From positions 1-60,408 of the forward strand of contig JAGBYM010000159.1 in assembly GCA_017628755.1 (NCBI GenBank): a stretch of 60,408 bases of DNA, given 5' to 3'. Positions 35,000 to 57,026 of the stretch are shown here, piece by piece. The notes beneath the pieces were generated by a model, which saw only the letters and a program-made list of their open reading frames with translations, had not been told where the DNA came from and searched no databases. The DNA comes from Clostridia bacterium (GTDB lineage Bacteria > Bacillota > Clostridia > Oscillospirales > CAG-272). The first letter of the stretch is position 1. Each line of letters opens with the position of its first letter. The position numbers were made by a program, and so were the translations under genes.

Positions 35000-35042
35000 A
35001 AATTCATTATAACACACATATAAATTGAGGAGGAATCCTGAA

Positions 35043-37473: not shown

Positions 37474-38941
37474 TAAGCTTGGTGGGGTGTCGCTTGACGC
37501 CATCTTTCTGACCTTCATAAAGCTTGTCACCACGGGACTCAGCCTGATAATCACGCGTCTTTTGTCCGAATATCTTTCGGTCTACGATTACGGAGTATAT
37601 TCGCAGGCATTATTGATTGTTTCAACCGTCTCGTCCTTTACTATTTTCGGTATGATGGACGGTATAAACTATTTTTATTGCAGTGAGAGCGATATTGCAA
37701 AGAGAGAGTCGTATACCGCTACGATATTCACGATGCAATGTGCCGTCAGCGCGGCGGCGGGCGCGGGACTTTTGATCTTAAGCGTTCCGCTATGCGAATA
37801 TCTCGGCAACCCTGGAATTCAGCGTCTGCTCGTATTCGTTGCGATGCTTCCGCTGTTGCAAAACGTTCTGGGCATTATTCAGGTGCTGATGATCTCCGTC
37901 GGTAAGGCGAGAATGCTTGCCCTGCGAAATTTTGTGATTTCGGCTATCCGTCTGGCGGTCGTGTTTGTTGTTGTTACCTTTGTGCGCAACGTTGCGATCA
38001 TTCTGGCGACCACCGTTATCCTTGACATCATACAGATCGCGGTATTTCTGATCATACTGAAGAAGAACGGCTGCAACGTAAAGATGCTCAAGACTGATTT
38101 CCGCTTGGTGCCCGCAATACTGAAGTACTGTGCGCCCATGGCGGTATTTACAATAGTCAGCTCGTTAAACCGAGATATGGACAAGTATCTCGTGTCGATC
38201 ATGACGGATACAAAGACGCTCGCACTTTATGCGAACGCATCAAAACAGCTGCCGTTTGATATACTGATGACTTCTTTCTGCACCGTTTTGATCCCGTATA
38301 TAACAAAATATATTTCGGAGCAGAAAAAGAAGCAGGCTGCCGGTATCTACAAGCTGTTTTTGGAGATAACTTATATTTCCACGGCGGTGCTTTGCTGTGC
38401 GGCACTTGCGGCATCACCTCAGCTGATGAAGCTGCTCTACTCGAATAAGTATACCGAAGGAATTGAGATTTTTGTAATATACATACTTGTGGATCTCTTC
38501 CGCTTTACCAATATTACTCTTGTGCTCAGCGCCGCCGGAAAGACCAGAACGCTGATGATGATCGGTCTCGGGGCGGTGTGCTGTAATCTGGTGTTGAATC
38601 CTTTGATGTACGGTTGGTTCGGGCTCATCGGACCTGCGGTTGCAACGCTCATCGTAACCGTAATGTCGGGAATTTTGATGCTTTATTTCAATTCGAGAGC
38701 TCTTGAGTGTAAGATCACGGAATTCTTTGATATGAAATATCTGGCGTTGTTCGCCGCCGAAAGCGTTGCTTTAACAGTTGCGCTGAGCTTTCTCAGTAAG
38801 TGGCTCGACAAAATGGACGTGCATTATTTTATAATTCTGGTTTCGGTTGCGGGACTTTACGGTATAATTATGCTCGTGCTGAACGGCAAACGCCTCTTGA
38901 AGGTACTTAAAAAGGTAAACCGCAAGTCGCTTGACGGATGA
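37463..38941 (+). CDS. wzx: Oligosaccharide flippase (Wzx, MOP superfamily)
   Basis: 492 aa, about 12-14 TM, in a glycan-locus context. The start is uncertain: TTG at 37463 overlaps the upstream stop, and an in-frame GTG at 37487 is the alternative. Confidence 0.8.
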   Translation: MSHNKLGGVSLDAIFLTFIKLVTTGLSLIITRLLSEYLSVYDYGVYSQALLIVSTVSSFTIFGMMDGINYFYCSESDIAKRESYTATIFTMQCAVSAAAGAGLLILSVPLCEYLGNPGIQRLLVFVAMLPLLQNVLGIIQVLMISVGKARMLALRNFVISAIRLAVVFVVVTFVRNVAIILATTVILDIIQIAVFLIILKKNGCNVKMLKTDFRLVPAILKYCAPMAVFTIVSSLNRDMDKYLVSIMTDTKTLALYANASKQLPFDILMTSFCTVLIPYITKYISEQKKKQAAGIYKLFLEITYISTAVLCCAALAASPQLMKLLYSNKYTEGIEIFVIYILVDLFRFTNITLVLSAAGKTRTLMMIGLGAVCCNLVLNPLMYGWFGLIGPAVATLIVTVMSGILMLYFNSRALECKITEFFDMKYLALFAAESVALTVALSFLSKWLDKMDVHYFIILVSVAGLYGIIMLVLNGKRLLKVLKKVNRKSLDG

Positions 38942-38962
38942 AATCGGCATAGGAGAAAAACA

Positions 38963-39898
38963 ATGAAGGTTGCAATCCTTTTATTAGCACATAAAAATAA
39001 AGCGCAACTTGAACGGTTGCTGTCCTTGCTTGATCATGAGGACGTCGATGTTTACGTTCATCTGGATAAAAAATGCAATTTTGAACCGCAGGACATTGAT
39101 TCTCCAACAAAAGTGACTTTTACCGATAAACGTTATGACGTCGGTTTGTTTGAGTTTTCGATGGTCGATGCCGAATTTGAATTGATCAATACCGCAAAGC
39201 GCAACGGCGATTATAAATATTTCATTCTTATGAGCGGACAGTGCTATCCTCTCGACCGTATCGACAGGATCGTTTCTTATCTTGATGCGCATTATCCCGA
39301 GCCCTTTATCGAAATAATTGCGCCGACCGAGCATAATTACGTGAAAAAGAATTTCAAGCACGTATATATTTTAAAGAGATTCAAATTGAAGACCTACGAC
39401 TTTTTGAAGAAACATTTTTCTTTCAAGGGTTACAGAGTTCTCAGGTATATCCCCGGCGGATTCGTTTTTGCTGTATCCACTCTTAAAGAGCTTTTTGTGA
39501 AATCGCCAAAGAGAAGGCTTGAAAAGATGGGGTATTCCGTGTACTGCGGTTCTCAATGGTGGATTCTGCCCGATCACATTATAGAAAAAGCCGAGTCGGC
39601 TTATAATGACAAAGCGTTTTGCAAAGCGGTAAGCGATACTTTCAGCTGTGACGAGACCTTCTTCCAGACGGTTATTATGAATCATCAGAAGGAGTGCGGC
39701 GTAGAGTTGGATTCGGATAACAATTTTGTGAACAGAAAATGGTTTTATATTTTTGACGGCGGCCATCCGATCACGCTGACGAAGTCTCAAGCAGATCAGA
39801 TCAAGGAATCGGGAATGCTGTTTGCCAGAAAATTTGATATCGACGTTGACAGCAAGGTTCTCGACGAGATAGACTGTAATATAAAAACCTTGGAGTGA
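38963..39898 (+). CDS. Glycosyltransferase family 14 (Core-2/I-branching, Branch domain)
   Basis: 311 aa. N-terminus MKVAILLLAHKNKAQLERLLSLL, plus FILMSGQCYPL and GSQWWIL motifs characteristic of Branch-family enzymes. Confidence 0.8.
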   Translation: MKVAILLLAHKNKAQLERLLSLLDHEDVDVYVHLDKKCNFEPQDIDSPTKVTFTDKRYDVGLFEFSMVDAEFELINTAKRNGDYKYFILMSGQCYPLDRIDRIVSYLDAHYPEPFIEIIAPTEHNYVKKNFKHVYILKRFKLKTYDFLKKHFSFKGYRVLRYIPGGFVFAVSTLKELFVKSPKRRLEKMGYSVYCGSQWWILPDHIIEKAESAYNDKAFCKAVSDTFSCDETFFQTVIMNHQKECGVELDSDNNFVNRKWFYIFDGGHPITLTKSQADQIKESGMLFARKFDIDVDSKVLDEIDCNIKTLE

Positions 39899-43624: not shown

Positions 43625-43651
43625 AAAAGATGGCGAAAGCCATCTTTTTTA
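43623..43651. terminator. Bidirectional terminator between convergent genes
   Basis: AAAAAGATGGC-gaaa-GCCATCTTTTT. Confidence 0.65.
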
Positions 43652-43852
43652 TTCCTTCCTATATTCAATAAAATCCTCAACCTGGCAGTCGAGGGCGGAG
43701 CAGATCTTATCGAGAATATAGCTGTCGTAACGGACCACGCGGTTTTTATAATAATTATCTATGATCTGGAATTTGATGCCCGTGCGCTTTGCCAGCTCAT
43801 AGCGGGTAATATTCTTTTCGTCAAGCAATTTATCAAGGGTTAAAATTATCAT
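43649..43852 (-). CDS. Small XRE-family helix-turn-helix regulator
   Basis: 67 aa. LDKLLDEKNITRYELAKRTGIKFQIIDNYYKN forms an HTH. Divergent from the sipW operon across 332 bp of AT-rich DNA. Confidence 0.85.
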   Translation of the reverse strand: MIILTLDKLLDEKNITRYELAKRTGIKFQIIDNYYKNRVVRYDSYILDKICSALDCQVEDFIEYRKE

Positions 43853-43863
43853 GCAATCACCTC

Positions 43864-43935
43864 GGTATATATTTTAATGGATATATACTCAATTGACAAT
43901 CTCCTTGATAAGGTATACACCTGAATAGGTATATA
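43864..43935. promoter_or_regulatory. Four GG(T/A)TATAYA boxes in two pairs (candidate operator sites)
   Basis: GGTATATA 43864-43871, GGATATATA 43879-43887, GGTATACA 43912-43919, GGTATATA 43928-43935. Spacing within each pair is 15-16 bp. Confidence 0.3.
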
Positions 43936-44051
43936 TTCCTTACATTAAATGTAAAATAGGCTTGCATGCACTACATATTGTGTTTGTGGCGAATATTTGG
44001 CACAAGTGTACAAAATAATTATGAAATATTAATTATTTTTTACTTTTTCTA

Positions 44052-44080
44052 TTGCAATTGTGAAAATATTATGATATAAT
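44052..44080 (+). promoter_or_regulatory. Sigma-A type promoter for the sipW operon
   Basis: TTGCAA (44052-44057), 17-nt spacer, TGaTATAAT (44072-44080). Leaves a ~100-nt leader. Confidence 0.5.
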
Positions 44081-44184
44081 AGTATTTATCAAAATTGTAT
44101 CCAATGGAAATATGGAAAGATTTGGAAAAATTCGCCTGACTTTCAAATAAATGTAACTGATGGCAGTAAAAGGGAGGAGAAGAA

Positions 44185-44775
44185 TTGAAGCAAACTTTAA
44201 AGAAAATTTGGAATATCGTTTCAACGGTACTTGTTGTCGTTGTAGTGGTATTTGCGATCCTTTTGGTAGGTCTGCGATTTGTCGGAGTGCAGGTATACTC
44301 GGTCATATCGGGATCGATGGAGCCGGAATATCCGGTCGGCGCGCTGATCTACGTTAAGGAAGTGGACGCATATGAGGTTGAGGTCGGCGACGTAATCACC
44401 TTTGTGCTCTCAAACGATATGCCTGCAACGCACCGCGTAATAGATATTGATTACGAAACTCAGCATTTCTATACGCGCGGAGACGCGAACTACAGCATAG
44501 ACGAAGCGACAGGCGAAAAGGTCTATACAGAGGACCCGGCCGTACACTTCAAGAACCTTATCGGAAAGCCGGTATTCACAATACCGCTTCTCGGATACGT
44601 CGCGTATTATATCCAGCACCCGCCGGGAATGTATATCGCACTCGCGGTCGGAGCAATAATCCTCGCGCTTGCCTTCCTGCCCGATATCTTTGCAAAATCG
44701 GATAAGAAGAAAACTCCCGCGGAGGACAACCCCGCACCCACCCCCGCCGAAGACGGCGACAAAAACGATGGCTAA
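44185..44775 (+). CDS. sipW: SipW-type (archaeal/ER-type, S26B) signal peptidase I
   Basis: 196 aa with a TTG start after AGGGAGGAG. N-terminal TM, catalytic SGSMEP, THRV His box and GDAN. A second TM and a charged Pro/Ala/Asp tail follow. Confidence 0.85.
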   Translation: MKQTLKKIWNIVSTVLVVVVVVFAILLVGLRFVGVQVYSVISGSMEPEYPVGALIYVKEVDAYEVEVGDVITFVLSNDMPATHRVIDIDYETQHFYTRGDANYSIDEATGEKVYTEDPAVHFKNLIGKPVFTIPLLGYVAYYIQHPPGMYIALAVGAIILALAFLPDIFAKSDKKKTPAEDNPAPTPAEDGDKNDG

Positions 44776-44838
44776 GCCGCAAGGCTCCATAATAAAACAG
44801 AAAAAATTTAAATTTTCATTTTAAAGGAGGTTTTCAAA

Positions 44839-45453
44839 ATGAAAACAAGAACCAAAGCATTACTTCTCGTAATGTCCGCACTGCTGCTCGTAGTCAGCAC
44901 AGTATTCGCAACCATGGCGTATCTTACATCATCTGTTAAGATCACCAACACTTTTACCGTTGGTAATGTAACTATTACTATGGATGAAACCGATGTTAAC
45001 GCTTATGGCGACTCCAACGGAACTCGTTCTGCAAATGGCAACCAATACAAACTCATTCCCGGTCATCGATATATCAAGGATCCTATTATTCACGTTGTAG
45101 CCGGAAGTGAAGAGTGCTATCTTTTTGTAAAGCTTGAAGACGGACTTGCTGATATTCAGGATGCTGATACTATTGCTACACAGATGGTAGCGGCGGGTTG
45201 GGAGAAGGTTTCTAGTGCTACTAATGTTTGGGTTTATACAAAGACCGCAACTCATACTGTCGATGCTAGAAACGAAGCGAAGGATGTACCGCTTTTCACT
45301 TATTTTAAACTTTTAGGAACTGCAGACGTTGCAAGTTATGGTTCAGCAAATATTACTGTTCAGGCTTGCGCAATCCAGGCGGATGGCTTCCCCACTTGGA
45401 ACGATGCATGGACAACCGGACTTTCTTCTACTTTCCCCACTGTTAGCCCGTAA
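44839..45453 (+). CDS. TasA/camelysin/BsaA-like SipW-substrate protein, paralogue 1
   Basis: 204 aa. Signal peptide then ATMAYLTSSVKITNTFTVGNVTITMDE. Also KLIPGHRYIKDPIIHV and C-terminal ACAIQ. Confidence 0.75.
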   Translation: MKTRTKALLLVMSALLLVVSTVFATMAYLTSSVKITNTFTVGNVTITMDETDVNAYGDSNGTRSANGNQYKLIPGHRYIKDPIIHVVAGSEECYLFVKLEDGLADIQDADTIATQMVAAGWEKVSSATNVWVYTKTATHTVDARNEAKDVPLFTYFKLLGTADVASYGSANITVQACAIQADGFPTWNDAWTTGLSSTFPTVSP

Positions 45454-45488
45454 TTTTGATTGTTAAGTAAAGAGAGGAATATTTAATA

Positions 45489-46058
45489 ATGAAAAAGAAA
45501 CTTATGGCTGTAGCGCTTGCTACAATTATTGCCGTTATGGCAGTTGCCGGCGCTTCTCTGGCGTGGTTGACAGATTCTTCTGAAAAAGTAGAAAACACCT
45601 TTACTGTTGGTAATATCACAATCGAACTTAAAGAAACCACTTCTAATTATAAGGTTGTTCCCGGTGGAACAGATAATAAGAACCCGAGCGTTACTGTAAA
45701 GGAAAAAAGCGAAAAATGCTATGTTTACGTACTGATTGATAACCAGCTTGCAATTGGTGGTGTTACTGTAGCTACTCTCGATATAAATAGTACTAATTGG
45801 ATAGCAGTATCAACAACTGGCACACAGACCCTTTACCGTTACAAAGAGGTTGTCGATGCATCTTCTGCAGATGTAACACATCCGGTGTTTACTACTGTTG
45901 AGTATAATGGAACACTTATTACTTCTGATAATATCAATGATTTGGCAGCCAAGAAAATTGTATTGAAAGCGTTTGCTCACCAGTCCGATAACACAACACA
46001 GGATGTAGCTGATACTGCCGCCAAGACATGGGCCCAAACTGCTTTTACGACTCCGTAA
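45489..46058 (+). CDS. TasA/camelysin/BsaA-like SipW-substrate protein, paralogue 2
   Basis: 189 aa. ASLAWLTDSSEKVENTFTVGNITIELKE, KVVPGGTDNKNPSVTV and C-terminal AFAHQ. Confidence 0.75.
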   Translation: MKKKLMAVALATIIAVMAVAGASLAWLTDSSEKVENTFTVGNITIELKETTSNYKVVPGGTDNKNPSVTVKEKSEKCYVYVLIDNQLAIGGVTVATLDINSTNWIAVSTTGTQTLYRYKEVVDASSADVTHPVFTTVEYNGTLITSDNINDLAAKKIVLKAFAHQSDNTTQDVADTAAKTWAQTAFTTP

Positions 46059-46077
46059 TATTTTTTGAATCAATATT

Positions 46078-46695
46078 ATGAAAAAGAAAATAGTTTTAAT
46101 CGCCATATACGTACTTACCCTCGCGCTTCTTGTTGCGTCGGGTAGTACGATAGCTTGGTTGATTGCAGAGTCCGGTACGGTTACAAATACATTTACTCCG
46201 AGTAATATTAATATTACTTTGAGCGAAACAACCCCGGATACGCTCAAAATGATTCCCGGAACTACTATAGAAAAAAATCCCCAGGTTACTGTTGCGGCGA
46301 ATAGCGAAGCTTGTTGGCTTTTTGTGAAGATTGAAGAAACAGATAATTTTGATACTTATATGCAATACCTCATTGACACCGGTTGGAAGTTTTATAGTTC
46401 CGGAGTTGATGGTGTAAATATTGATACTGTTGCTAATGACAAGTATATAATTTATCGTGAAGTGCCCTCGTCTTCTTCTATTCAAGAATTTTATATTCTT
46501 AAAGATAATGATGTATTAGTTCCCGGTACTGTTACAAAAGAAGATATGAATCTTTTGTACAATTCGGATGGAACATTCAAAACCGAGGTTCTGCCTAAGT
46601 TGAAGTTTACAGCGGCTGCTATTCAGAAGGAAAACATTGCTGATGTTACAACTGCTTTTGGTAGCTTACCGTCAGTATTTACCACGATTTCGTAA
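46078..46695 (+). CDS. TasA/camelysin/BsaA-like SipW-substrate protein, paralogue 3
   Basis: 205 aa. STIAWLIAESGTVTNTFTPSNINITLSE, KMIPGTTIEKNPQVTV and C-terminal AAAIQ. No obvious SD upstream. Confidence 0.65.
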   Translation: MKKKIVLIAIYVLTLALLVASGSTIAWLIAESGTVTNTFTPSNINITLSETTPDTLKMIPGTTIEKNPQVTVAANSEACWLFVKIEETDNFDTYMQYLIDTGWKFYSSGVDGVNIDTVANDKYIIYREVPSSSSIQEFYILKDNDVLVPGTVTKEDMNLLYNSDGTFKTEVLPKLKFTAAAIQKENIADVTTAFGSLPSVFTTIS

Positions 46696-46732
46696 CTAAT
46701 CTACCACATAATTTCAGAAAGGAATTTTTAAA

Positions 46733-47506
46733 ATGAAAAAGAAAATTCTCGCAGTTGCACTTGCTACGATTATGATCGTTATTGCTGTTACCGGTGCAAC
46801 CCTCGCTTACATGAAGGACTCCCACAAGGCTACCAACACCTTTACCGTTGGTAACGTAAAGATCGAGCTTAGCGAAGCTCAGGTAAAGAAGGATGCCTCT
46901 ACAGGCAATATCGTTGAGGACAACACTCTTCCTCGCCTGATTAATGCAGGTATCGCATACGGCGACCCCATCACTGGAGTTGGCAACCTCTACCCCGCAC
47001 AGACTGCACATAAGGATCCCACCATCAAGAATATCGGTTCTGAGGATGCTTACATCGCGGCTAAGATCACTATTTCTTCTACTCCTGATGCAGGCGAAAA
47101 GAAACTTTATGACGTTATGGGTCTTGCAGGTACTGATCTCCTTGATATCGGTGGTTTCGTTACCGGCGGTCTTATTTCCGTACCCACCGATCCCGCTAAT
47201 AACAAGATTGTTGATGGCGGCCTTGTTTGCAGCAATGCAAGCTACCTCATCTATCAGCGCGTTGAAGGCGGCAAGTACGTATTCTACATCTTCCTCGAGG
47301 GCGCTAAGGCTAAAGACTTTGAGCAGGTACTTTTCACTACCCTCAATATTCCCAAAACTTGGGATAACGCAGAGATCGCGGCTCTTAAGGGTCTCACTAT
47401 CGATATTGAAGCATACGCAGTTCAGACTAACAGCTTTGCAACCTGCTATGCCGCTATGACTACTGCATTCCCCACTCAGTTCAGCTTTTCCACTTCTCTC
47501 TATTAA
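46733..47506 (+). CDS. TasA/camelysin/BsaA-like SipW-substrate protein, paralogue 4
   Basis: 257 aa. ATLAYMKDSHKATNTFTVGNVKIELSE and C-terminal AYAVQTNSFATCYAAMTTAF. Confidence 0.75.
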   Translation: MKKKILAVALATIMIVIAVTGATLAYMKDSHKATNTFTVGNVKIELSEAQVKKDASTGNIVEDNTLPRLINAGIAYGDPITGVGNLYPAQTAHKDPTIKNIGSEDAYIAAKITISSTPDAGEKKLYDVMGLAGTDLLDIGGFVTGGLISVPTDPANNKIVDGGLVCSNASYLIYQRVEGGKYVFYIFLEGAKAKDFEQVLFTTLNIPKTWDNAEIAALKGLTIDIEAYAVQTNSFATCYAAMTTAFPTQFSFSTSLY

Positions 47507-47539
47507 TTAATGTAATAGTATTGAAAGGACTATAAAATT

Positions 47540-48262
47540 ATGAAAAAGAAAATACTTGCAGTTGCGCTTGCTGCTATTATGCTTCTTATAGCAATCACCG
47601 GCGCATCTCTTGCATACCTCACCGATAAGGATGATCAGGTCAACACCTTCACCTCCGGTAAGGTTGATATCACTCTTGACGAAGCAAAAGTTACTCTCGA
47701 TGCTGACAAGTACATTTCCGGCTACACCGGACGTACCTCCGAAGACCAGAACTACGGTAAGATGTTCCCCGGTCAGGTTATCACCAAGGACCCCACCATC
47801 ACCGTTGCAGCTGACTCCGAAAAGGCATACGTTGCAGCTAAGGTCACCGTTACCGCTACAGATCTTCAGACCCTTATCGGTATTCCCGGAACTGATCTGA
47901 TCGATATCAATAAGCTCGCAAGCGGCGGACTTATGGCAGATACTTTTGCTGAAAAGCCTACACATCCCCTTGCCGGCGGTACTCTTCCTGTTTTCGGCAA
48001 TGATAAGTATTCCATCTACCAGGAGAAGGATGGAAATGCGTATGTATTCTACATCTTCATCGAGACCATCAAGGCTCCCGGCGAGTCTGTAACTCTCTTT
48101 GATACCATCACAATTCCCACCGCTTGGACCAACGCAGATATGGCTAAGATCGTTGATCTCAAGGTTACCGTTGACGCTTACGCAGTTCAGGTTCAGACCT
48201 TTGCTGATTGCTTCGATGCTATGACCACCGCGTTTGCAACCGACTTCTCCTTTGCTCCGTAA
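47540..48262 (+). CDS. TasA/camelysin/BsaA-like SipW-substrate protein, paralogue 5
   Basis: 240 aa. ASLAYLTDKDDQVNTFTSGKVDITLDE, MFPGQVITKDPTITV and C-terminal AYAVQVQTFADCFDAMTTAF. Confidence 0.75.
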   Translation: MKKKILAVALAAIMLLIAITGASLAYLTDKDDQVNTFTSGKVDITLDEAKVTLDADKYISGYTGRTSEDQNYGKMFPGQVITKDPTITVAADSEKAYVAAKVTVTATDLQTLIGIPGTDLIDINKLASGGLMADTFAEKPTHPLAGGTLPVFGNDKYSIYQEKDGNAYVFYIFIETIKAPGESVTLFDTITIPTAWTNADMAKIVDLKVTVDAYAVQVQTFADCFDAMTTAFATDFSFAP

Positions 48263-48283
48263 CCCATATAGAGGACATAAAAG

Positions 48284-48994
48284 ATGAAAAGAAAAATTCT
48301 TGCAATCGCTCTTGTGGTTTGCATGCTTATCGTAGCTATCGCGGGCGCATCTCTCGCGTACTTCACCGATAAGGACGAAAAGGTGAACGTTTTCACCTCG
48401 GGCAAGGTTGACATCACCCTCAATGAGGTCTTTGATGCTACCGAAGCACAGCTCATCCCCGGCGTTGATATTCAGAAGGACGTTACCGTTTCGCTCTCTT
48501 CTGATAGTATTGCTACCTACGTTTGGTACACCTACGCTATCCCCACAGCTCTCGATGACGCGGGTGTTATCCACGTTAACCACGCCGGCAGAAACCTCGT
48601 TGACTACCGCGAGGATTCCGCATACTGGGCAGCAGGTCAGACCTCCGCGACTCCCATTGAGGATTGCTGGAAGATCAGCTCCACTGTAGAGAAGGGCGTA
48701 GTTATCGACGGCGAGTCCTACAACGTTTACACCGTTCTTTACAACGGTACTCTTACCGCAGGCGAGACCACCACAGTCGGTATGACTAAGGTTTACTGCG
48801 ATACCAAGGTCGATTTCGATAATGCGACCGGAAAGTACGTTATGAACGGTACTGCCATCGGCGGCGATCTTAACAACGTCAAGATCATTGTTACCGCATA
48901 CGGCATTCAGGCTGCAACCTTCGCAAACGTCGAAGCGGCATACGCAGCATATTCCGCGCAGAATATTGCAGGCGCGGCGATAGATATCGATTAA
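48284..48994 (+). CDS. TasA/camelysin/BsaA-like SipW-substrate protein, paralogue 6
   Basis: 236 aa. ASLAYFTDKDEKVNVFTSGKVDITLNE (the classic AYFTD), QLIPGVDIQKDVTV and C-terminal AYGIQAATFANV. Confidence 0.75.
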   Translation: MKRKILAIALVVCMLIVAIAGASLAYFTDKDEKVNVFTSGKVDITLNEVFDATEAQLIPGVDIQKDVTVSLSSDSIATYVWYTYAIPTALDDAGVIHVNHAGRNLVDYREDSAYWAAGQTSATPIEDCWKISSTVEKGVVIDGESYNVYTVLYNGTLTAGETTTVGMTKVYCDTKVDFDNATGKYVMNGTAIGGDLNNVKIIVTAYGIQAATFANVEAAYAAYSAQNIAGAAIDID

Positions 48995-49013
48995 TTGAAG
49001 ATATCTTGACACT

Positions 49014-49072
49014 CTGCTCCCTAAAAAGGGAGCAGGGTGTATATGACGTTCTTGGGTTTAAACCGAAGAACG
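49014..49072 (+). terminator. Two adjacent hairpins after paralogue 6 (possible terminator and/or palindromic operator; no U-tract)
   Basis: CTGCTCCC-taaaaa-GGGAGCAG (49014-49035), then the 26-bp near-perfect palindrome CGTTCTTGGGTTT/AAACCGAAGAACG (49047-49072). Confidence 0.35.
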
Positions 49073-49120
49073 CGATATATGCCCTGAATTTGAGTGAATT
49101 TTACATATAGGAGACCTTAC

Positions 49121-49687
49121 ATGAAAAAGAAAATATTGGCGCTTGCGCTGATCGTCATCTGTCTTTCGATAGTGGCGTACGGCACGACCGCGTATTTTAC
49201 ATATGATATAATCGCAACTCACGTTATAACCGCGGGTAACGTGCGCATCGAGCTCGAGCAGCTTGCAATACTGACTCCGGGCGGCGCACCGATCGAGTTT
49301 GATCGCCCGAACGACATCGTACCCGGCACGAGCGTATCGAAGATCGTTCAGGTGAAGAACACGGGTTACGCGGCGGCGTGGGTGAGACTCGCGCTGACGA
49401 AGGAGATCATACTCGCGTCCGGCGTTACGGGCGAGGTCGATCTTTCGCTCGTGAGCTACGAGATCAATGAAGAATACTGGGCGGAGCAGGATGGCTGGTT
49501 TTATTACCTGAAGCCCCTCGAAGCCGGCGCGACCACAGAGCCGATCTTTACCGAGATCAGCTTTGCGGCGAGCATGAGCAATATGTATCAGAAGAGCCAA
49601 TCGAAGATCAACGTCCTCGCGCACGCGGTGCAGACCGTATATAACGGCGAGAGCGTCTTCGAGGCGGCAGGATGGCCCGAAGCATAA
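49121..49687 (+). CDS. TasA/camelysin/BsaA-like SipW-substrate protein, paralogue 7 (divergent, GC-rich)
   Basis: 188 aa from the ATG at 49121 (TAGGAG RBS). GTTAYFTYDIIATHVITAGNVRIELEQ, DIVPGTSVSKIVQVKNTG and C-terminal AHAVQ. Confidence 0.7.
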   Translation: MKKKILALALIVICLSIVAYGTTAYFTYDIIATHVITAGNVRIELEQLAILTPGGAPIEFDRPNDIVPGTSVSKIVQVKNTGYAAAWVRLALTKEIILASGVTGEVDLSLVSYEINEEYWAEQDGWFYYLKPLEAGATTEPIFTEISFAASMSNMYQKSQSKINVLAHAVQTVYNGESVFEAAGWPEA

Positions 49688-49704
49688 TGAAAGGAGGCAA
49701 TCGC

Positions 49705-52700
49705 ATGAAAAATATCAAAATAACTAAAATAATTGCCTTCTTTATGGCAGTCCTCATGATCCTTCCCATGGTCCCCACAATGGACCTCACCGTATTTGCG
49801 GAGGGGGAGAGCGGGCTTGATTTGAAGGATAAATATGTAAAAATGGTTTCTTCTTTCCCGGAATTCAGATTGGATCCTACTGTGACAGGTAGTATGTGCG
49901 GATCATCTGCATTTCCTGAAGTTATGTACGTTGAAGATGTGCGTCAAGTAAACAGTGTCGTATATTGTCAGGTGAAGGCTGCCGAGGATTACACTTGGAA
50001 TGAAGATAATTTGTGGGATGTTCCCGAACATTGTTGGGTTATTAGTACTGCTCTTAAAGTAGTTGAATATACACCCTCCACTCCCACAACTCCCGAAATT
50101 TCCGCGACTGTTAAGGACGCAAATGGCAACGACTTGACCGTCAAGGTCGAAGGCGAACTCCCCGAGGGGGCAGAACTTTCCGTATCTATTCCCGAAATCG
50201 GCGGCGAAAAGCTCCCCAACGTCTTCGATATCAAAGTTCTCAAATCCGATGGCACCGAATGGCAGCCTATCGATGAGGGGAAGACGGTGACGGTTTCGAT
50301 ATCAGCTGACTCGTCTTATGATTATTATGATATATACCATTGTATAGATTACGCTCCTGCTATACATTCTAATATAGAATATGTTCCGGTTGATATTAAC
50401 GATCAGGAGGTTATGACAGTTCTTGATGAGGCTCTTGAAGTAAGTGATGTAGAAGGTTGTGTTATAGTTGAAAAACATTTAAATATATCTGTTGTCGATG
50501 ATATCATTTCGTTTGCAACTAATAGTTTTTCTATCTATGAATTATCTGGTAGCCAATTCGTTCCAGGCAATGATATTGATAAGGTTGAATTTGATAATAA
50601 CAGCCTAGGTTCTTCAACTGATGAGGATACAATTGTAGGAGATATATTTTATGCAACAGCAGATACAGAGTTCGTTTTTGAGACAACTCAAAGTGCAGTT
50701 AACCATAAACATTACGATACGTATTTTACTGTTAAAAAGGGTAGAGAATATGTTACGCTAACCAACGAAACGGGAGGCCGAACTGGATTTTTGAGTGGTA
50801 GCAAAGTTAGTGTAAAAGTTACTATTGACCCAAATACGCCCGCGGGTACAGAATTAGTTATTTTGTTTAGAACTGATGGAACTCTAGGTATTGGAGCAAA
50901 ATCTATTCCAAGACAGATAACAATAGTTCGCTCTATTGATATTAAATTTGATTCAAATCTAGATGTTGCCGGTGTAACTGTTACTGGGATGCCCAACAAT
51001 GAGCTTGGCTTTGTTACGGATGCTGCTCAATCAATATTCCCGCTTCCATCAAATGTTCCTACCGCTGTTAATAATAGTGATCCAAATGATAAATATGAAT
51101 TTTTAGGTTGGAATACCAGTAAAGCAGGTGACGGAACTGCATATATATGGAACGGCACAGCGTTTAGTCCTAAAGAATTTATTCCTTCACAAAATATTAC
51201 GTTATATGCGATGTGGAAACGTAGTGAATGTACTGTTACGTTTGACCATAACAATGGTACGGGAACCAAGGAAAAAGTGACGAAAGAATATGGTTCGTCT
51301 GTGACAGTTCCCGAAGATCCGCAACGTCCGGGTTATATTTTCTTGGGTTGGTCTGCTTCTCTTGACGGAACCGGACGAAGGTATAAATTGAGTGATGCAG
51401 AGTATAATTCGGTTGAACTGAAATCAGACGTTACGCTCTATGCTATTTGGGGAGTAAAGATTAATATAACTGCAATCGGCGGTACAATTTCCGTACAAAA
51501 GGACGGGGAGACAAAATTTACTGCCCTGACCGATACTAATACGTACGGATTCTTGGTGGAACATCCGAAAGCCGATGTAACTACTTACTACGCAGTAGTT
51601 GCTGAAAACTCTTATGCTAACGCATATTTCCGTTTTACTCCAGCGACATCAGGTAGTACTATCAGAGGTGCTTCGACAGGTTCAAGTATGAGCTTTTTGA
51701 ATGCTATTGGAAGTACCAAGCTTAGCGGAGATGTATTGTTAACCTCAGCCGGTTTGACTACGGATACAACCATTACATTTACCGCATTGAATAAGTTTAT
51801 TGTTTCTTTTGAAACAAACGGAGGTTCTCCGGTTACTTCTGTACTTATGGACGATGGAGATACTATCAATCTTTCCGGATATACTCCGGAAGCTCGCGAG
51901 GGATATGACTTTGTTGGATGGTATTTGACATCGGATTTCTCCGGCAGTTCGATTTCTTCTCATAAAGTAAAATCCGACACTATTTTCTATGCTAAATGGA
52001 TTCCTCACAGGTATAGTGTAACTTTAAATAAGGGCTACGGTATTGACAGCGTCAGCGGTGGCGGTGAATACGATTATTCAGCTCTTGTTAATGTTTCCGC
52101 TCAGTTGAAACCGGGTTATAGTTTCTTGCAGTGGACTGCATCAGGAGTTCCTAATTCTAATTCTGCGAATTATTCATTCCTTCTTCCGGATGGCCCTGTA
52201 GAACTTACTGCCGTAGGAAAGTTGAACACCTATAACATCACATATAATCTTGCAGGTGGCACGGTAAGTGGAATAAACATTACGCAGTACACAGTTGAAG
52301 ACGGTGCGATAACACTTGTTAATCCTACAAGGATTGGTTATGTATTTCTTGGTTGGACAGGAACCGGCTTGAGTGAACCGACTGTTAACGTTACTATTCC
52401 CACCGGAAGTTACGGTGATCGAGAATATACTGCAAATTGGAAAGCAGGTAAGTATTCTGTTACATGGGTGGACGCTTTTGGTAATACTATTCTTTCTGAA
52501 GAACTTGATTACGGCACGACTATTACAAATATACCTGCGAATCCTTCCAAGTCCGGATATACTTTCTGTGGTTGGAAAGGATATACTGCGGGTATGAAGA
52601 TGCCTGCATATGATGTGGTGGTTACAGCGCGTTGGGAAGTTTCCGTTCGTGCTACCATAGATAACAATGGTACTATTGTATGTGTTTTCGATGGACATGT

Positions 52701-55700
52701 GTACAATGGCTCGTCCGGTGAAGTTGCTATTCTCCATATTCCTCTGGAAATTGGTACAATCGGTGCAGGCTCTACAATAGCCTTTACTCCGGCAATAGGT
52801 TATAAGATTTCTAAGGTAACCTTTACTATTGGCGAGGAAACCAGCGTCAATACCAATCCGACGGTGCTTTCAGACGGCTCATATGTCTATGTGATTCCTG
52901 CTGAAGGTATAACTGCAGAGATGGAAATCACAGTTGAGACTACGCTGAAGCAGTGTACTATCTCGTTTGAGTCCAATGGCGGTTCCGTAGTTTCTCCGAT
53001 CTCGGAACTTTACGGTACAGCAATCTCCAAGCCTACCGATCCAACTAAGGAAGGTTACTCATTTGCTGGTTGGTATACAGAGCCGACTTTGGAAAATGAA
53101 TATGTGTTCACTACTATGCCTGCAGATGATATTACTCTGTATGCAAAGTGGTCTATCAATCAGTATACTATTACCTTCAATACCGATGGCGGTACACCTG
53201 TTGCGGCGATTACGCAAGATTTTGGAACTGATATAACTAAACCTGCCGATCCTACAAAAGTAGGTCATACTTTCGCAGGTTGGGATATCGAAATTCCCGA
53301 CAAGATGCCCGGAGAGGATATAACTATTACTGCACAGTGGACACCTTATACCTACACTGTTTCTTATCAGCTCGGACTTATTCCTGAGCGTTTAACAAAC
53401 GCCGGTGTGTTTGTTCAGCAGACTAAGAAGTACGGAATCAATTTGCAGTTGAATGCCGTTGAGCCCACTGCACTTGGCGCAAATTTTGCAGGTTGGGATA
53501 CTGACGGTAACGGTACAGCTGATTATCAGGCAGGAGATACATACACGGGTAATGAGGCTCTTACGCTTGTTGCGGTGTGGACTCCCAAACCTATGAAGGT
53601 CGTTTACAGCACTTCCGGACTTCCTGCCGGTGTTACTGCAACGTTTGAAAGTCAGCAGGGTTATTACAATGATTCGGTGACCGTTCAATCTCCTGCTGTT
53701 GTGGGATATCAGATTGTAAAGATCGAGGTAGACGGAATAGAGGTTTCTTTCGATTATGATATTAAGTTTATTGACAGCGATGTAAACGTAGTTGTTACTT
53801 ACGCGCCCATCGGTTATAAAATTACCTTTGATACCGATGGTACACAGAATGTTGTAGACTATAATATCGAAGGAACTGTTTCTCTTTCTACTCCTACTAA
53901 AACCGGCTATACTTTCGCCGGTTGGAAGGTAACAGTTGCTGACGGTAACTGGACAGAAAACGCCATCCACACGGGAACTGTTGAGAAAATGTACGGTAAC
54001 GTTACTCTTACCGCACAGTGGACGATCAATCAGTACACCATTATCTTTCAAAACGAAGACGGAACTGTTCTCCAGTCGAGCTTGTGGTCTTACGGTGATT
54101 CTCCCGAGTACAGTGGCACTACCCCCACAAAGGCAGCTGACGCGCAGTATACCTATACTTTCGCGCAGTGGTCTCCCGAAATCGTTTCCGTAACCGGTGA
54201 CGTAATTTATACCGCAACTTATACCGCAACGGTTAATAAGTATACCATTACCTTTGAAAATGAGGATGGAACTGTTCTTCAGACCGTTGAAGTAGAGTAC
54301 GGTAAAACCCCCGAATATGGCGGCGCAACTCCCACCAAGGCACCCGATGCGCAGTATACTTATACTTTTGAAAAGTGGACACCTTCGATCGAATCTGTAA
54401 CGGGTAATAAAACTTATACTGCGGTTTATTCTACTTTAACCAATAAGTATACAGTCATTTGGAAAAACTGGGACGGTACCGTTCTTGAAACCGATGAAGA
54501 CGTGCCTTACGGTTCAACTCCCGAATATAACGGTGCGGAACCCACAAAACCTGCAACTGCACAGTATACTTATACTTTCACAGTTTGGACACCGGAAGTT
54601 GATTCCGTAACCGGTGATGTTACCTATACCGCAACCTTTAGTTCGACGGTTAATACCTATACTGTAACTTGGGAAAACTGGGACGAAACCGTACTTGAAA
54701 CCGATGAAAATGTTCCTTACGGTACAAAGCCTGAATATAATGGCTCTCAGCCTACAAAGGTTGTTCCGGGTTATACTTATGTATTCAATGGCTGGTACCC
54801 TGAGGTCAATAACGTAACCGGCGACGTAACTTATAAGGCACAATTTACTGAAAATGTAGTTCAGTTCACTATTACTTATAACGCCAACGGCGGTGATGCG
54901 GTGGCTTCTCAAGTGTACGATATTGAGCATGCTATTACTTTGAGCACTCCTACCAGAAAGGGATATACTTTTGTTGGTTGGAAGGTTACAACATCCGGCG
55001 GTAACTGGTTCATCGATACGGAATATGCTCCCGCTAACCTCGCTATTGCCAAAGGTAAATACGGAAACGTTACTTTGACTGCTCAGTGGACTGAGAACCT
55101 TGTCGAGATCAATTACAAGATCGTCATCCCGAGCGGTGCTGAGGATTACGGAACTCTTTCTAAGACTTCTGAATCCGTCGGTGCGGCAACAGGTGCACCT
55201 TCTTGTATCGCTCTGCCCGAGCCTACATTCAAGTTTGCGGGTTGGTATGATAATGCGGAGTGCAACGGCGAACCGATTTCGATGAATGAGGAATACACGT
55301 TTACAAAGCCTGACGGAACTTTATGGGCAGACGGTACTACCTACTACGCCAAGTTTGAGTATAATCTTACACAGCTTATGCTGAATGTTAGTACTAACTC
55401 GGATTGCTCACTTCTGATCAATATTAAGGGTAAGAATGACAGCGTAGATCTTGATATTATTGTGCCCTCACGCAGCAACGGCGTTATTGTCGACGGTCTT
55501 ATCATCGGTAATACCTATACAATAACCATTGATACTGATTGGACAAAGGGATACAATTGGGATAAGTGGAGTTATGATAATACTTCCGGCGCCGGTTCCA
55601 AAGCTGAAATTACGTTGGTGGCTGAGCCTTATTCCCAAATCATCTTCCACGTATCTGAAATTGGCGGTGCTTGGCTCAGCGGCGGTACAGAAAGTCCTAC

Positions 55701-55731
55701 AACAAGTACTTTCTCATCCGTAGCAGGCTAA
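49705..55731 (+). CDS. Secreted 2008-aa protein made largely of Listeria-Bacteroides (Flg_new / InlB-B-like) repeats; no recognisable anchor
   Basis: ATG at 49705 after AAGGAGG. Sec-type signal MKNIKITKIIAFFMAVLMILPMVPTMDLTVFA. 16 occurrences of the Y.F.(G/Q/K/V)W signature, each ending in ..TLYA.W or ..YTA.F. The C-terminus lacks a dockerin, LPXTG, SLH or TM. Confidence 0.85.
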   Translation: MKNIKITKIIAFFMAVLMILPMVPTMDLTVFAEGESGLDLKDKYVKMVSSFPEFRLDPTVTGSMCGSSAFPEVMYVEDVRQVNSVVYCQVKAAEDYTWNEDNLWDVPEHCWVISTALKVVEYTPSTPTTPEISATVKDANGNDLTVKVEGELPEGAELSVSIPEIGGEKLPNVFDIKVLKSDGTEWQPIDEGKTVTVSISADSSYDYYDIYHCIDYAPAIHSNIEYVPVDINDQEVMTVLDEALEVSDVEGCVIVEKHLNISVVDDIISFATNSFSIYELSGSQFVPGNDIDKVEFDNNSLGSSTDEDTIVGDIFYATADTEFVFETTQSAVNHKHYDTYFTVKKGREYVTLTNETGGRTGFLSGSKVSVKVTIDPNTPAGTELVILFRTDGTLGIGAKSIPRQITIVRSIDIKFDSNLDVAGVTVTGMPNNELGFVTDAAQSIFPLPSNVPTAVNNSDPNDKYEFLGWNTSKAGDGTAYIWNGTAFSPKEFIPSQNITLYAMWKRSECTVTFDHNNGTGTKEKVTKEYGSSVTVPEDPQRPGYIFLGWSASLDGTGRRYKLSDAEYNSVELKSDVTLYAIWGVKINITAIGGTISVQKDGETKFTALTDTNTYGFLVEHPKADVTTYYAVVAENSYANAYFRFTPATSGSTIRGASTGSSMSFLNAIGSTKLSGDVLLTSAGLTTDTTITFTALNKFIVSFETNGGSPVTSVLMDDGDTINLSGYTPEAREGYDFVGWYLTSDFSGSSISSHKVKSDTIFYAKWIPHRYSVTLNKGYGIDSVSGGGEYDYSALVNVSAQLKPGYSFLQWTASGVPNSNSANYSFLLPDGPVELTAVGKLNTYNITYNLAGGTVSGINITQYTVEDGAITLVNPTRIGYVFLGWTGTGLSEPTVNVTIPTGSYGDREYTANWKAGKYSVTWVDAFGNTILSEELDYGTTITNIPANPSKSGYTFCGWKGYTAGMKMPAYDVVVTARWEVSVRATIDNNGTIVCVFDGHVYNGSSGEVAILHIPLEIGTIGAGSTIAFTPAIGYKISKVTFTIGEETSVNTNPTVLSDGSYVYVIPAEGITAEMEITVETTLKQCTISFESNGGSVVSPISELYGTAISKPTDPTKEGYSFAGWYTEPTLENEYVFTTMPADDITLYAKWSINQYTITFNTDGGTPVAAITQDFGTDITKPADPTKVGHTFAGWDIEIPDKMPGEDITITAQWTPYTYTVSYQLGLIPERLTNAGVFVQQTKKYGINLQLNAVEPTALGANFAGWDTDGNGTADYQAGDTYTGNEALTLVAVWTPKPMKVVYSTSGLPAGVTATFESQQGYYNDSVTVQSPAVVGYQIVKIEVDGIEVSFDYDIKFIDSDVNVVVTYAPIGYKITFDTDGTQNVVDYNIEGTVSLSTPTKTGYTFAGWKVTVADGNWTENAIHTGTVEKMYGNVTLTAQWTINQYTIIFQNEDGTVLQSSLWSYGDSPEYSGTTPTKAADAQYTYTFAQWSPEIVSVTGDVIYTATYTATVNKYTITFENEDGTVLQTVEVEYGKTPEYGGATPTKAPDAQYTYTFEKWTPSIESVTGNKTYTAVYSTLTNKYTVIWKNWDGTVLETDEDVPYGSTPEYNGAEPTKPATAQYTYTFTVWTPEVDSVTGDVTYTATFSSTVNTYTVTWENWDETVLETDENVPYGTKPEYNGSQPTKVVPGYTYVFNGWYPEVNNVTGDVTYKAQFTENVVQFTITYNANGGDAVASQVYDIEHAITLSTPTRKGYTFVGWKVTTSGGNWFIDTEYAPANLAIAKGKYGNVTLTAQWTENLVEINYKIVIPSGAEDYGTLSKTSESVGAATGAPSCIALPEPTFKFAGWYDNAECNGEPISMNEEYTFTKPDGTLWADGTTYYAKFEYNLTQLMLNVSTNSDCSLLINIKGKNDSVDLDIIVPSRSNGVIVDGLIIGNTYTITIDTDWTKGYNWDKWSYDNTSGAGSKAEITLVAEPYSQIIFHVSEIGGAWLSGGTESPTTSTFSSVAG
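54034..54864 (+). repeat. Four tandem 69-70-aa repeats (207-210 nt period) inside the 2008-aa gene
   Basis: Unit starts at 54034, 54241, 54448 and 54658. Consensus: YT(I/V).(F/W).N.DGTVL......YG..PEY.G..PTK....QYTYTF..W.P....VTGD.TYTA.(Y/F). Confidence 0.85.
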
Positions 55732-55747
55732 GAGAGGAGGCAAGTAA

Positions 55748-56287
55748 ATGCTCAAAAAATTGAATAAAAAGAGATTAATAGTTTTACTTGTCTCGCTTTC
55801 CCTCGCGCTTGTCGCCGGTGTGGGAGTGACAGTGGCGTTGATCATGACTAAGACTGAGCCGATCGAAAACACCTTCGAGCCCTCTTATGTTGACTGCGCT
55901 GTGCTTTCCGATACGTCGGTAGATAATACCGGCGATACAACGGCTTACATCCGTGCGGCGGTTATCGCCACTTGGAAGAAGGATGGCGTTGTCTGGGCAC
56001 AGAAGCCGCTCGAGGGCGCAGGCAAAGATTATCAGATAACCTTGGGCGCAGGCTGGGTAAAGCTCGGTGACTACTATTACTATACCTTGCCGGTTGACGC
56101 TGAGGCGGCAACTACAAAGCTGATCGAGACCTTGATCCAAACCGGAACAGCTCCTACGCTCGAGCATTCGCTTTCGATCGAGATCGTAGCGGCTGCAGTT
56201 CAGTCACAGCCTACGACAGCGGCTGAATCTATGTGGGGCGTAACTATTACCGATAATAAAATTACCGGATTGGCGGGAGGATCGTAA
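55748..56287 (+). CDS. TasA-like paralogue 8 (divergent signal region)
   Basis: 179 aa with a GAGGAGG RBS. Signal/TM then ALIMTKTEPIENTFEPSYV, which keeps the NTF motif. C-terminal AAAVQ as in paralogues 1-7. Confidence 0.6.
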   Translation: MLKKLNKKRLIVLLVSLSLALVAGVGVTVALIMTKTEPIENTFEPSYVDCAVLSDTSVDNTGDTTAYIRAAVIATWKKDGVVWAQKPLEGAGKDYQITLGAGWVKLGDYYYYTLPVDAEAATTKLIETLIQTGTAPTLEHSLSIEIVAAAVQSQPTTAAESMWGVTITDNKITGLAGGS

Positions 56288-56952
56288 TGAAACGAAATTT
56301 TCGAAGAATTATCGCTCTCCTTCTGGCAGTTATATTCTGCATGAGTGCTGTGATCTCGGTCTCGGCTGACGATTCGATCATCTACGATGGTGAGTCGCAT
56401 GAGTTTATCTTCGTTCATGATGAAGTAAACGAATCGGGCGAGGAGATCAGGGTTATGCCCGGTGACACGATCAAAAGAAAGCTGACTGTCAAAAACGACG
56501 CCGAACGTGATGTTAAGGTCAATATTTTCGTTCGCCCCCTCGTAAAAGCCATCGATTCCGAATCCGGATCGGCAGATTATCTCTCCGATGTCACCGTTAC
56601 GGTTGCCAAGGCGAAGGAAAACAGAATGGCTTATATGTTCGAGGCGTCCGCGGATCAACTTGATGAATCGGGCGAGTGGCTCATGCTCGGAACCCTCTAT
56701 TCGGGCGGTATGGTCGATCTTGAGGTAACACTCGATTTCCCGATCACGCTCGACAATGAATTTCAGGGCGCAGAGTTTTATCTCGAGTTCAGAGTTCAGG
56801 AGTTCCCGAAGGAACCCGACGATCCCGAGCCTCCCCAGACGGGTGACGTTAACAACGTCGTACTCTTTTCCTGCGTTTCGGCGGTTGCTCTTGTGCTGAT
56901 ACTGATCCCGATCGTATCGCGCAGACGCAGACGAGACGAGGAAGAAGAATAA
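56287..56952 (+). CDS. Cell-wall-sorted protein with camelysin-like core and PPQTG sorting signal
   Basis: 221 aa, with the ATG overlapping the upstream TAA. Sec signal ..CMSAVISVSA. RVMPGDTIKRKLTVKNDAERD and NEFQGAEFYLEFRVQ resemble family motifs. C-terminus is PPQTGD, then a 22-residue hydrophobic stretch, then RRRRRDEEEE. Confidence 0.75.
   Translation: MKRNFRRIIALLLAVIFCMSAVISVSADDSIIYDGESHEFIFVHDEVNESGEEIRVMPGDTIKRKLTVKNDAERDVKVNIFVRPLVKAIDSESGSADYLSDVTVTVAKAKENRMAYMFEASADQLDESGEWLMLGTLYSGGMVDLEVTLDFPITLDNEFQGAEFYLEFRVQEFPKEPDDPEPPQTGDVNNVVLFSCVSAVALVLILIPIVSRRRRRDEEEE
56830..56949 (+). other. Sortase sorting signal ((S/P)PXTG type)
   Basis: PPQTG is encoded at 56830-56844, followed by VNNVVLFSCVSAVALVLILIPIV and an Arg-rich tail. 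Confidence 0.75.
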
Positions 56953-56963
56953 TTTTTAAATGC

Positions 56964-56994
56964 AAAACCGCAGATTGACAATCTGCGGTTTTTG
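56964..56994 (+). terminator. Rho-independent terminator ending the sipW locus
   Basis: ACCGCAGATT-gaca-AATCTGCGGT followed by TTTTGTG. Confidence 0.8.
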
Positions 56995-57026
56995 TGTTAT
57001 AATTAGAAAAAATGCGAGGTGGCATT

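Follow-up and report, generated by a model that had tools for sequence, protein, structure and literature searches.

A SipW-headed operon of TasA/BsaA-superfamily subunits with a giant repeat protein and a sorting-signal protein: a candidate wall-anchored fibre of gut Clostridia

What would be built at the cell surface by an operon that encodes a SipW-type signal peptidase, a row of small secreted proteins, a 2008-residue repeat protein and a protein with a sortase sorting signal? The question is raised by a stretch of 60,408 nucleotides from a Clostridia bacterium (contig JAGBYM010000159.1 of assembly GCA_017628755.1), here called the window, in which 11 same-strand genes lie inside one promoter-to-terminator block at 44052–56992. 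The small secreted proteins are numbered P1 to P8 in gene order, and the protein with the sorting signal is P9. Our answer, which we think probable, is that the operon encodes a strand-exchange fibre of the TasA/BsaA superfamily, with P7, the giant protein and P8 as its tip module, P1–P6 as its shaft and P9 as its sortase-anchored base. The genes and signals of the block are as follows.

44052–44080, + strand: sigma-70-like promoter (TTGCAA-17-TATAAT, extended TG, 10/12 match)
44185–44775, + strand: SipW-type (archaeal/endoplasmic reticulum-type) signal peptidase I, 196 aa (TTG start, ribosome-binding site GGGAGGAG)
44839–45453, + strand: P1, TasA/BsaA-type subunit (TIGR04088 19.6 bits; N37, E50, K80)
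45489–46058, + strand: P2, subunit (TIGR04088 24.6 bits; N36, E49, K64)
46078–46695, + strand: P3, subunit (BLASTP to P2 1e-18; N37, E50, K66)
46733–47506, + strand: P4, subunit (TIGR04088 31.1 bits; N35, E48, K94)
47540–48262, + strand: P5, subunit (TIGR04088 33.2 bits; N35, F37, E48, K83)
48284–48994, + strand: P6, subunit (TIGR04088 31.8 bits; N35, E48, K65)
49121–49687, + strand: P7, subunit (hhalign to P5 and P8; H34 and Q47 in the window copy)
49705–55731, + strand: giant protein, 2008 aa (ordinary signal peptide, 16 Listeria-Bacteroides/InlB-B repeats, anchorless)
55345–55728, + strand: C-terminal module and tail of the giant protein, placed by alignment with other middle proteins; degenerate in the window
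55748–56287, + strand: P8, subunit between the giant protein and P9 (N41-x-F43 kept, family E54 missing)
56287–56952, + strand: P9, 221 aa, beta-sandwich and sorting signal (PPQTG at 56830–56844, transmembrane segment, RRRRR)
56964–56992, + strand: intrinsic terminator hairpin (13-bp stem, 5 GC pairs, T run)

All 11 genes named by an initial annotation of this DNA were located, its promoter and terminator (44052–44080; hairpin 56964–56992) were recovered, and the motifs that it quoted are present: SGSMEP and THRV in SipW, MPGD, NEFQG and PPQTG in P9, and NTFT.GNV.I.L, PG....K and A.A(V/I)Q in the paralogues. Intergenic spacing is -1 to 63 nt, except for 126 nt ahead of P7, and a ribosome-binding site precedes most genes. 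In the source metagenome-assembled genome (MAG), the locus tags are J6S71_10130 to J6S71_10155.

The peptidase passes the archaeal/endoplasmic reticulum-type signal peptidase I model TIGR02228 (87.1 bits, cut-off 51.85), as the initial annotation had supposed, with its Ser in SGSMEP (44308–44325) and its His in THRV (44428–44439). Against the Bacillus equivalog NF046067 it scores 80.3 bits, under the cut-off of 190, and so by these scores it is SipW-like, not a Bacillus orthologue.

Judged by sequence comparison, the paralogy of P1–P8 is far beyond chance. BLASTP within the window links P4 to P5 (6e-61), P5 to P6 (2e-23) and P2 to P3 (1e-18), and hhalign with signal peptides removed links P7 to P8 (99%, 6e-18), P7 to P5 (97.8%, 1e-12) and P8 to P5 (89%). 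The SipW-cognate signal model TIGR04088 (domain cut-off 19 bits) is reached by P1, P2, P4, P5 and P6 only; P3, P7, P8, P9 and the giant protein do not reach it, and the expectation of a SipW-cognate signal is borne out for at least those five. Similarly, Peptidase_M73 (PF12389, gathering threshold 22.5 bits) is matched at threshold by P4 (22.6 bits), P5 (23.8) and P6 (24.7), over the N-terminal 50–70 residues only (50 in P4), while P2 (18.9), P7 (16.5) and P9 (17.3) fall below it and P1, P3 and P8 have no match. PF12389 is precomputed on most database homologues of P5 and P6, some of which carry the NCBI name ‘SipW-dependent-type signal peptide-containing protein’. The AlphaFold2 (AF2) single-chain model of P5 (mean predicted local-distance difference test score, pLDDT, 89.4) is a beta-sandwich in which residues 27–43 are unstructured. 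With this model, Foldseek recovers the TasA fibre 8aur_A (probability 0.90, E 5.5e-3, TM-score 0.30), the archaeal bundling pilus 7ueg_A (probability 0.84) and cohesins (0.96); a profile search of the PDB with the P5-family alignment found no match. Taken together, the TIGR02228, TIGR04088 and hhalign results support a SipW-dependent locus in which P1–P8 are TasA/BsaA-superfamily subunits. Of the nine TasA/camelysin-like paralogues that had been counted, eight stand by BLASTP and hhalign. The link of P9 to TasA is marginal, and the count is therefore eight paralogues and one distinct anchor family.

P9 is built from an ordinary AxA signal peptide, a beta-sandwich (AF2 model, pLDDT 72), EPDDPEPPQTGD, a 23-residue hydrophobic segment and RRRRR; it thus has the motif, hydrophobic segment and basic tail of a sortase substrate, and it carries the only sorting signal in the 60-kb window. 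In an alignment of 32 diverse family members, PxTG, the transmembrane segment and the basic tail are present in 32/32, and MPGD, NEFQ and the PxTG(D/E) signal are invariant or nearly so; of the loci fetched, 53 have PPxTG as the motif and 12 have APxTG. The proposal that the PPQTG protein is a dedicated sortase-type member is upheld by this conservation and by its fixed place in the gene order.

That gene order recurs far beyond the window. P9 homologues form more than 1,000 90%-clusters, and 2,396 50%-clusters at E <= 1e-3, under no Pfam or NCBIfam name. The genome scan found relatives in 214 species-level genomes, mostly animal-gut MAGs, from Oscillospiraceae, Acutalibacteraceae, Faecousia, Ruminococcus and Lachnospiraceae; the carriers include an isolate, Hespellia stercorisuis DSM 15480 (NZ_FQZY01000013.1, locus L017). 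Two layouts are found. Type A, the layout of the window (17 loci), consists of SipW, pilins, P7, a middle or giant protein of 330–2400 aa, P8 and P9. Type B (49 loci) consists of SipW, often in two copies, large TasA-fusion proteins, a P7-like gene and P9. The order SipW-pilins-P7-giant-P8-P9 recurs in L005, in L007 and across the 17 type A loci, in which P8 invariably sits between the giant protein and P9. Among the 69 loci with sequence upstream of P9, the gene directly upstream is P7-like or P8 in 66, and a P7-like gene lies upstream in 61; 25 of 34 loci have a close homologue of SipW no more than 10 kb upstream of P9. The check on synteny thus finds the order kept across distant genomes, so that it is not a peculiarity of this assembly.

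Two SipW-type peptidases, each over the TIGR02228 cut-off, are encoded in many type B loci (for example L031 4030–4794 and L047 6003–6728), the second being 230–260 aa long and 24–31% identical to the SipW of the window. In L017 and L006 the flanks hold an IS21-type transposase, IstB, tyrosine integrases, a serine recombinase and a thioester-domain/SpaA adhesin, which indicates that the locus is sometimes on mobile islands; no P9-like sequence was found on plasmids in PLSDB.

Conservation of individual subunits follows the conservation of order. Relative to L005, the orthologues of P1, P2, P3, P6 and P7 are 54%, 61%, 50%, 74% and 77% identical, and the P3 orthologue in L007 is 40% identical; P6 is the best conserved of P1–P6, with orthologues at 65–87% in many clusters. 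Identity among the paralogues inside the window is 25–44%. Since orthologues are closer to each other than paralogues are, and their order is kept, the paralogues are old and individually maintained. For P1, P2, P3, P6 and P7 the orthology is one-to-one and the order is conserved, while the number of middle, P4/P5-like, paralogues differs from locus to locus.

In type A loci the slot between P7 and P8 is always filled by a protein of 330–2400 aa, and this fits either role that had been suggested for the giant protein, tip adhesin or cargo. In the window its repeats are matched by Flg_new (PF09479; ten copies, 6.6e-98) and Flg_new_2 (PF18998; six copies). The bodies of the middle proteins are unrelated, and the sole part that they have in common is a C-terminal module, roughly YAKFEYNLTSLTIxK...YTITEKTDWSWRY...ITFTNxR, followed by the tail WLDGDSWxxNxF; the N-x-F of the tail is retained in L007 and L033. 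In L033 this module has weak matches to DUF5979 (1.2e-3) and SpaA (0.016). We also considered whether it might be a TasA-like acceptor domain, and rejected this on negative hhalign comparisons with the P5, P7, P8 and P9 profiles. In type B loci the separate giant adhesin is replaced by proteins of 460–690 aa with a SipW-type signal, a TasA-like N-domain and other domains (LRR_5 is the fusion partner in L006, 1261–8140); from their domain content these look like adhesin-pilin fusions.

How might such subunits be joined? In C. perfringens BsaA, residues 28–38 are the donor strand, V33 and F37 are buried, and N35 is bonded to K74 of the next subunit with E56 as catalyst (PMC11580942). All of P1–P6 have N-x-F, a Glu at +13 and the PGxxxxK pattern, and in the P5 family N35, F37, E48 and K83 are invariant (32 homologues). 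In the P7 family (73 sequences) N34 is found in 68/73, E47 in 71/73 and K74 in 73/73, and in the P8 family (21 sequences) N41 and F43 are found in 21/21 and E54 in 19/21. The pattern of P1–P6 resembles the donor-strand lock of BsaA, and makes an isopeptide lock in these subunits plausible.

Starting from the gene content, family assignments, sorting signal and conserved synteny described above, we infer the following order of assembly. By analogy with TasA and BsaA, cleavage by SipW would free the N-terminus (Y/W-L/F-T-D ... N-T-F-T-x-G) as a donor strand, which would insert into the beta-sandwich of the next subunit and so chain the subunits together. In P1–P6 the strand Asn, with the Glu and Lys of the body, may then lock the junction by an intermolecular isopeptide bond, as in BsaA. 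The synteny suggests a tip or adhesin module made up of P7, P8 and the giant protein; the last of these, which has an ordinary signal peptide and no anchor, would be retained by way of its C-terminal module and tail, both conserved among the middle proteins. P1–P6 would be the shaft, or further minor subunits. As its signal type suggests, P9 would be the base that accepts the donor strand of the last subunit, and it would be joined to peptidoglycan by a class B sortase whose gene lies at another place in the genome. An acceptor-only role is proposed because P9 combines an ordinary signal peptide and no N-x-F donor motif with a strictly conserved PPxTG.

A more detailed version of this scheme, which we put forward only tentatively, would make the system a complete Gram-positive counterpart of chaperone-usher pili. 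The giant tail WLDGDSWxxNxF, as a mimic of N-x-F, would plug into the first subunit; strands freed by SipW would chain P7, P8 and P1–P6, with Asn-Lys locks in most lineages; and P9 would be an acceptor-only terminator fixed by a class B sortase. If this were true, a strand-exchange polymer would be coupled to covalent wall anchoring, and adhesins would be swappable simply by carrying the tail.

A number of observations weigh against the proposed fibre. Firstly, the family links are thin in places. All subunits are below the cut-off of 60 for the BsaA-family model TIGR04090 (best P6 36.2 and P7 33.3 bits), and the fold matches of P5 are weak (TM-score about 0.3, E 3e-3 to 1e-2), with cohesin jelly-rolls scoring equal to TasA. 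Secondly, the mapping of the Asn-Glu-Lys triad onto BsaA rests on position and conservation. TasA, in our alignment, has equivalents of the Glu and Lys, no Asn, and forms no isopeptide; for both reasons the lock is plausible rather than proven. Within the window, P7 has H34 and Q47 in place of the family N and E. The exceptions to E54 in the P8 family are the window and its sister locus L009, which have a Ser there and a deletion. In the same two loci the Lys, Glu, strand Asn and tail Asn of the giant C-terminal module are all gone. The same four residues have been lost jointly and independently in Hespellia (L017), and losing them together suggests that they cooperate functionally. The window lineage thus seems, on these residues, to have dropped presumed isopeptide locks in the tip module that are kept in P1–P6, and with these residues lost its tip junctions would be non-covalent. 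Co-variation between the giant tail Asn and P8 Glu54 was considered as well: it fits the window and L009, and Hespellia breaks it by lacking the tail Asn while keeping the P8 Glu, so that it is a mere hint.

Thirdly, P9 is an uncertain member of such a chain. Its 17.3 bits against Peptidase_M73 are below the cut-off of 22.5, and 1/32 family members matches this model, while 10/32 have weak matches to the PapD-like Cep192_D4. Foldseek also gives a PapD-like structure, 6fvi, as the best match, and PDB searches by Foldseek and profile return weak, mixed matches to PapD-like proteins, TasA and a nanobody, with the profile reaching TasA at E ~0.5, at the PGD...N motif. hhalign links the P9 and P7 families at 84% (E 7.6e-6) over just 45 columns, and finds no match of P9 to the P5 or P8 families. 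On these comparisons the TasA-likeness of P9 is marginal, and P9 is not demonstrably TasA-like. At the position of the acceptor Lys of P7, P9 has Gln or Arg, which speaks against a fully covalent chain. Finally, a TLxTC scan found no sortase in the 60-kb window, and a class B sortase (TIGR03064 165–199 bits, cut-off 154) lies within 6 kb downstream of P9 in 6/55 related loci, that is, in only 11%.

The alternative that best survives these data, and that we nonetheless regard as unlikely, is that P9, anchored to the wall, acts as a nucleator or chaperone comparable to TapA or CapP, donating its mature N-terminal segment or a PapD-like strand to the first subunit, so that the fibre grows outward from it. 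A precedent is TapA, which nucleates TasA through strand complementation (PMC10151520). The mature N-terminus of P9, DGxVTYDGxAxxFIF, is strongly conserved (Y33, G35, F40) and is modelled by AF2 as a low-confidence strand, and the best fold and Pfam likenesses of the protein are to PapD-like/ASH domains. However, the known strand-donating members of TasA-type systems, TapA included, are SipW substrates, and P9 has an ordinary AxA signal peptide without N-x-F. Moreover, outward growth needs a strand-accepting tip, whereas the conserved trait of the giant protein is its C-terminal tail, with no TasA-like acceptor domain.

We find it improbable that the products form a loose TasA-like biofilm matrix with no discrete pilus, in which P9 and the giant protein are merely co-expressed surface proteins. 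In favour of it, both TasA and BsaA act chiefly as components of the matrix, most BsaA polymers being found outside the cell (PMC7395162); upstream of the operon the window has an exopolysaccharide (EPS) gene cluster, and in L007 the locus is followed by Wzz/CpsB/LytR genes. Against this, a P7-like gene or P8 before P9 in 66/69 loci and the fixed slot of the giant protein are hard to explain without physical partnership, and one C-terminal module is common to the middle proteins, although their bodies differ.

It seems very improbable that, instead of being parts of one heteropolymer, the paralogues provide alternative shafts that vary antigenically or can be switched. Subunits do diverge faster than the peptidase (42–61% identity between the window and L005 for P1–P3, P8 and P9, against 90% for SipW), and the P4/P5-like copy number varies among loci. 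Yet P1, P2, P3, P6 and P7 are one-to-one orthologues whose order is conserved, and a single promoter and terminator enclose the block. No recombinase, tandem repeats or invertible repeat flanking the promoter was found, only short AT-rich inverted repeats, and on this basis phase variation was rejected; the switchable fibre suggested in the initial annotation is not borne out by paralogues that are old and individually orthologous. Lastly, a role of the small proteins as secreted metalloproteases of the camelysin type (M73) can be practically discarded, as the idea is prompted by the Pfam name Peptidase_M73, whose matches span the signal and donor-strand region only, and the peptidase naming of CalY is itself regarded as a likely misidentification (PMC11580942).

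The strand-exchange fibre with an anchored base that we prefer is closest to the C. perfringens sipW-bsaA-bsaB-bsaC operon with srtB (PMC7395162, PMC11580942). There too the operon of TasA-like subunits begins with a SipW-type peptidase, BsaA has N35 and F37 in its donor strand with Glu and Lys in its body, an LPXTG-bearing paralogue, BsaB, adjoins the class B sortase gene srtB in most strains, and BsaC is a secreted protein that is large and not of the TasA type; that SrtB anchors BsaB is a proposal only (PMC11580942). Unlike that operon, with its two or three subunits and vWA protein, the window has eight paralogues, all under the TIGR04090 cut-off, a giant protein of Listeria-Bacteroides repeats, and an anchor from a family of its own with PPxTG. 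With B. subtilis tapA-sipW-tasA (PMC9674648, PMC10151520) the operon shares a dedicated SipW and, as predicted here, a jelly-roll subunit, an N-terminal donor strand, used by TasA in donor-strand exchange (PMC9674648), and a cell-wall-associated accessory protein; xTFxSGxxDxxxxE and PGxxxxKD can be aligned by eye. The B. subtilis system differs in that the donor Asn is absent from TasA, TapA is a substrate of SipW without a sortase link, and there is one major subunit and no giant adhesin.

Loci of the AbpX-like and archaeal TasA superfamily (AbpX, Tafi, threads and bundling pili) similarly have major and minor subunits, a predicted tip, a dedicated signal peptidase I and a regulator, and the bacterial AbpX-like loci have LPXTG or SLH anchors and sortases. 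They differ in a 10-transmembrane signal peptidase I, where the window has a 196-aa SipW-type enzyme, in a DUF5305 accessory protein (no DUF5305 match was seen among the scanned proteins), in calcium-mediated complementation, and in belonging to a different subfamily with a different anchor family. Sortase-assembled pili of the SpaA type have a tip adhesin, a shaft, a wall-linked basal subunit and isopeptide chemistry, as would the fibre proposed here, and the giant C-terminal module resembles the CnaB/SpaA prealbumin domain with its K/E/N pattern; in our system, however, polymerization would be by strand exchange with no class C sortase, and there is one sorting signal only. By analogy, P9 may be compared most closely to the basal pilin of sortase pili or to PapH, the terminator of chaperone-usher pili. 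The latter would share with the proposed fibre a tip adhesin, minor subunits in a set order, assembly by donor-strand exchange and a terminator, the role that we propose for the weakly PapD-like P9, but the likeness is one of analogy only, as there is no usher, chaperone, outer membrane or homology here.

The initial annotation had seen in this locus an undescribed combination, a claim that has to be narrowed. Operons of the BsaA/TasA type that combine multiple paralogues with signal peptidases, sortases and LPXTG proteins have been described (PMC11580942). Bacterial loci of the TasA superfamily are likewise on record that encode sortases, tip proteins and minor subunits together with LPXTG anchors, and AlphaFold 3 predicts that an LPXTG anchor joins the AbpX fibril subunit by donor-strand complementation (bioRxiv 10.64898/2026.01.04.697558). 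Since preprints of 2024–2026 cover multi-paralogue TasA operons, LPXTG anchors, sortases and tips, the system is not categorically new. In full-text literature searches, neither the P9 family nor the P7-giant-P8-P9 module was found described. Thus the general kind has recently been noted, and the widespread layout of the window is uncharacterized.

TasA-type fibres of Bacillus are treated as sortase-independent matrix scaffolds; the assembly of Bacillus TasA/CalY, explicitly that of B. cereus, has been called sortase-independent (PMC13082335). The module described here would show gut and rumen Clostridia turning the same type of polymer into a wall-anchored, adhesin-carrying pilus. Its unnamed P9 family is spread over hundreds of species in Oscillospiraceae, Acutalibacteraceae, Ruminococcus and Lachnospiraceae, and defining it would better annotate thousands of ‘hypothetical’ surface proteins and point to commensal adhesins. 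The fibre might also serve as a self-assembling, cargo-carrying display scaffold. With H. stercorisuis DSM 15480 as a cultured carrier, the model can be tested directly.

Upstream of the promoter there are two further features that concern regulation.

43649–43852, - strand: divergent HTH_26 (Cro/C1-type) regulator, 67 aa (Pfam HTH_26 9e-18)
44008–44043, strandless: 14-nt inverted repeat, candidate operator (93% complementary, 8-nt spacer, just upstream of the -35 element)

The repeat is, speculatively, a possible operator for the divergent HTH_26 gene, and could be a matter of chance because it is AT-rich. An HTH_26 gene is found at the equivalent position in L005 and is otherwise confined to close relatives. 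The analogy with SinR drawn previously is therefore weak, the small gene being present in the closest relatives only, and SinR-like control as a conserved trait was rejected, the gene being missing from distant loci. The Rfam search gave no RNA element match. At the other end of the operon, a perfect sigma-70-like promoter (TTGACA-17-TATAAT, TG; 56975–57003) is nested in the terminator, with its -35 element in the hairpin loop; the M20 peptidase gene downstream probably starts at ATG 57027 (ribosome-binding site GAGGTGG), in preference to 57012.

Elsewhere in the window, three proteins with type I dockerins are encoded at 17265–21545, 22958–34999 and 35025–36740, one of them of 4013 aa without another recognized domain and another combining an NAGPA phosphodiester glycosidase domain, Big_2 and the dockerin. 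These genes lie among EPS/glycosyltransferase genes (12190–17001 and 36823–39898) and an Lgt-like gene (22253–22957). By its dockerin proteins and EPS genes, the host resembles Ruminococcus or other Oscillospiraceae-type bacteria. Long antisense open reading frames, which are probably artefacts, are seen at 47507–49012 (- strand, 501 aa), opposite the subunit genes, and at 17280–20945 (- strand, 1221 aa), opposite a dockerin protein.

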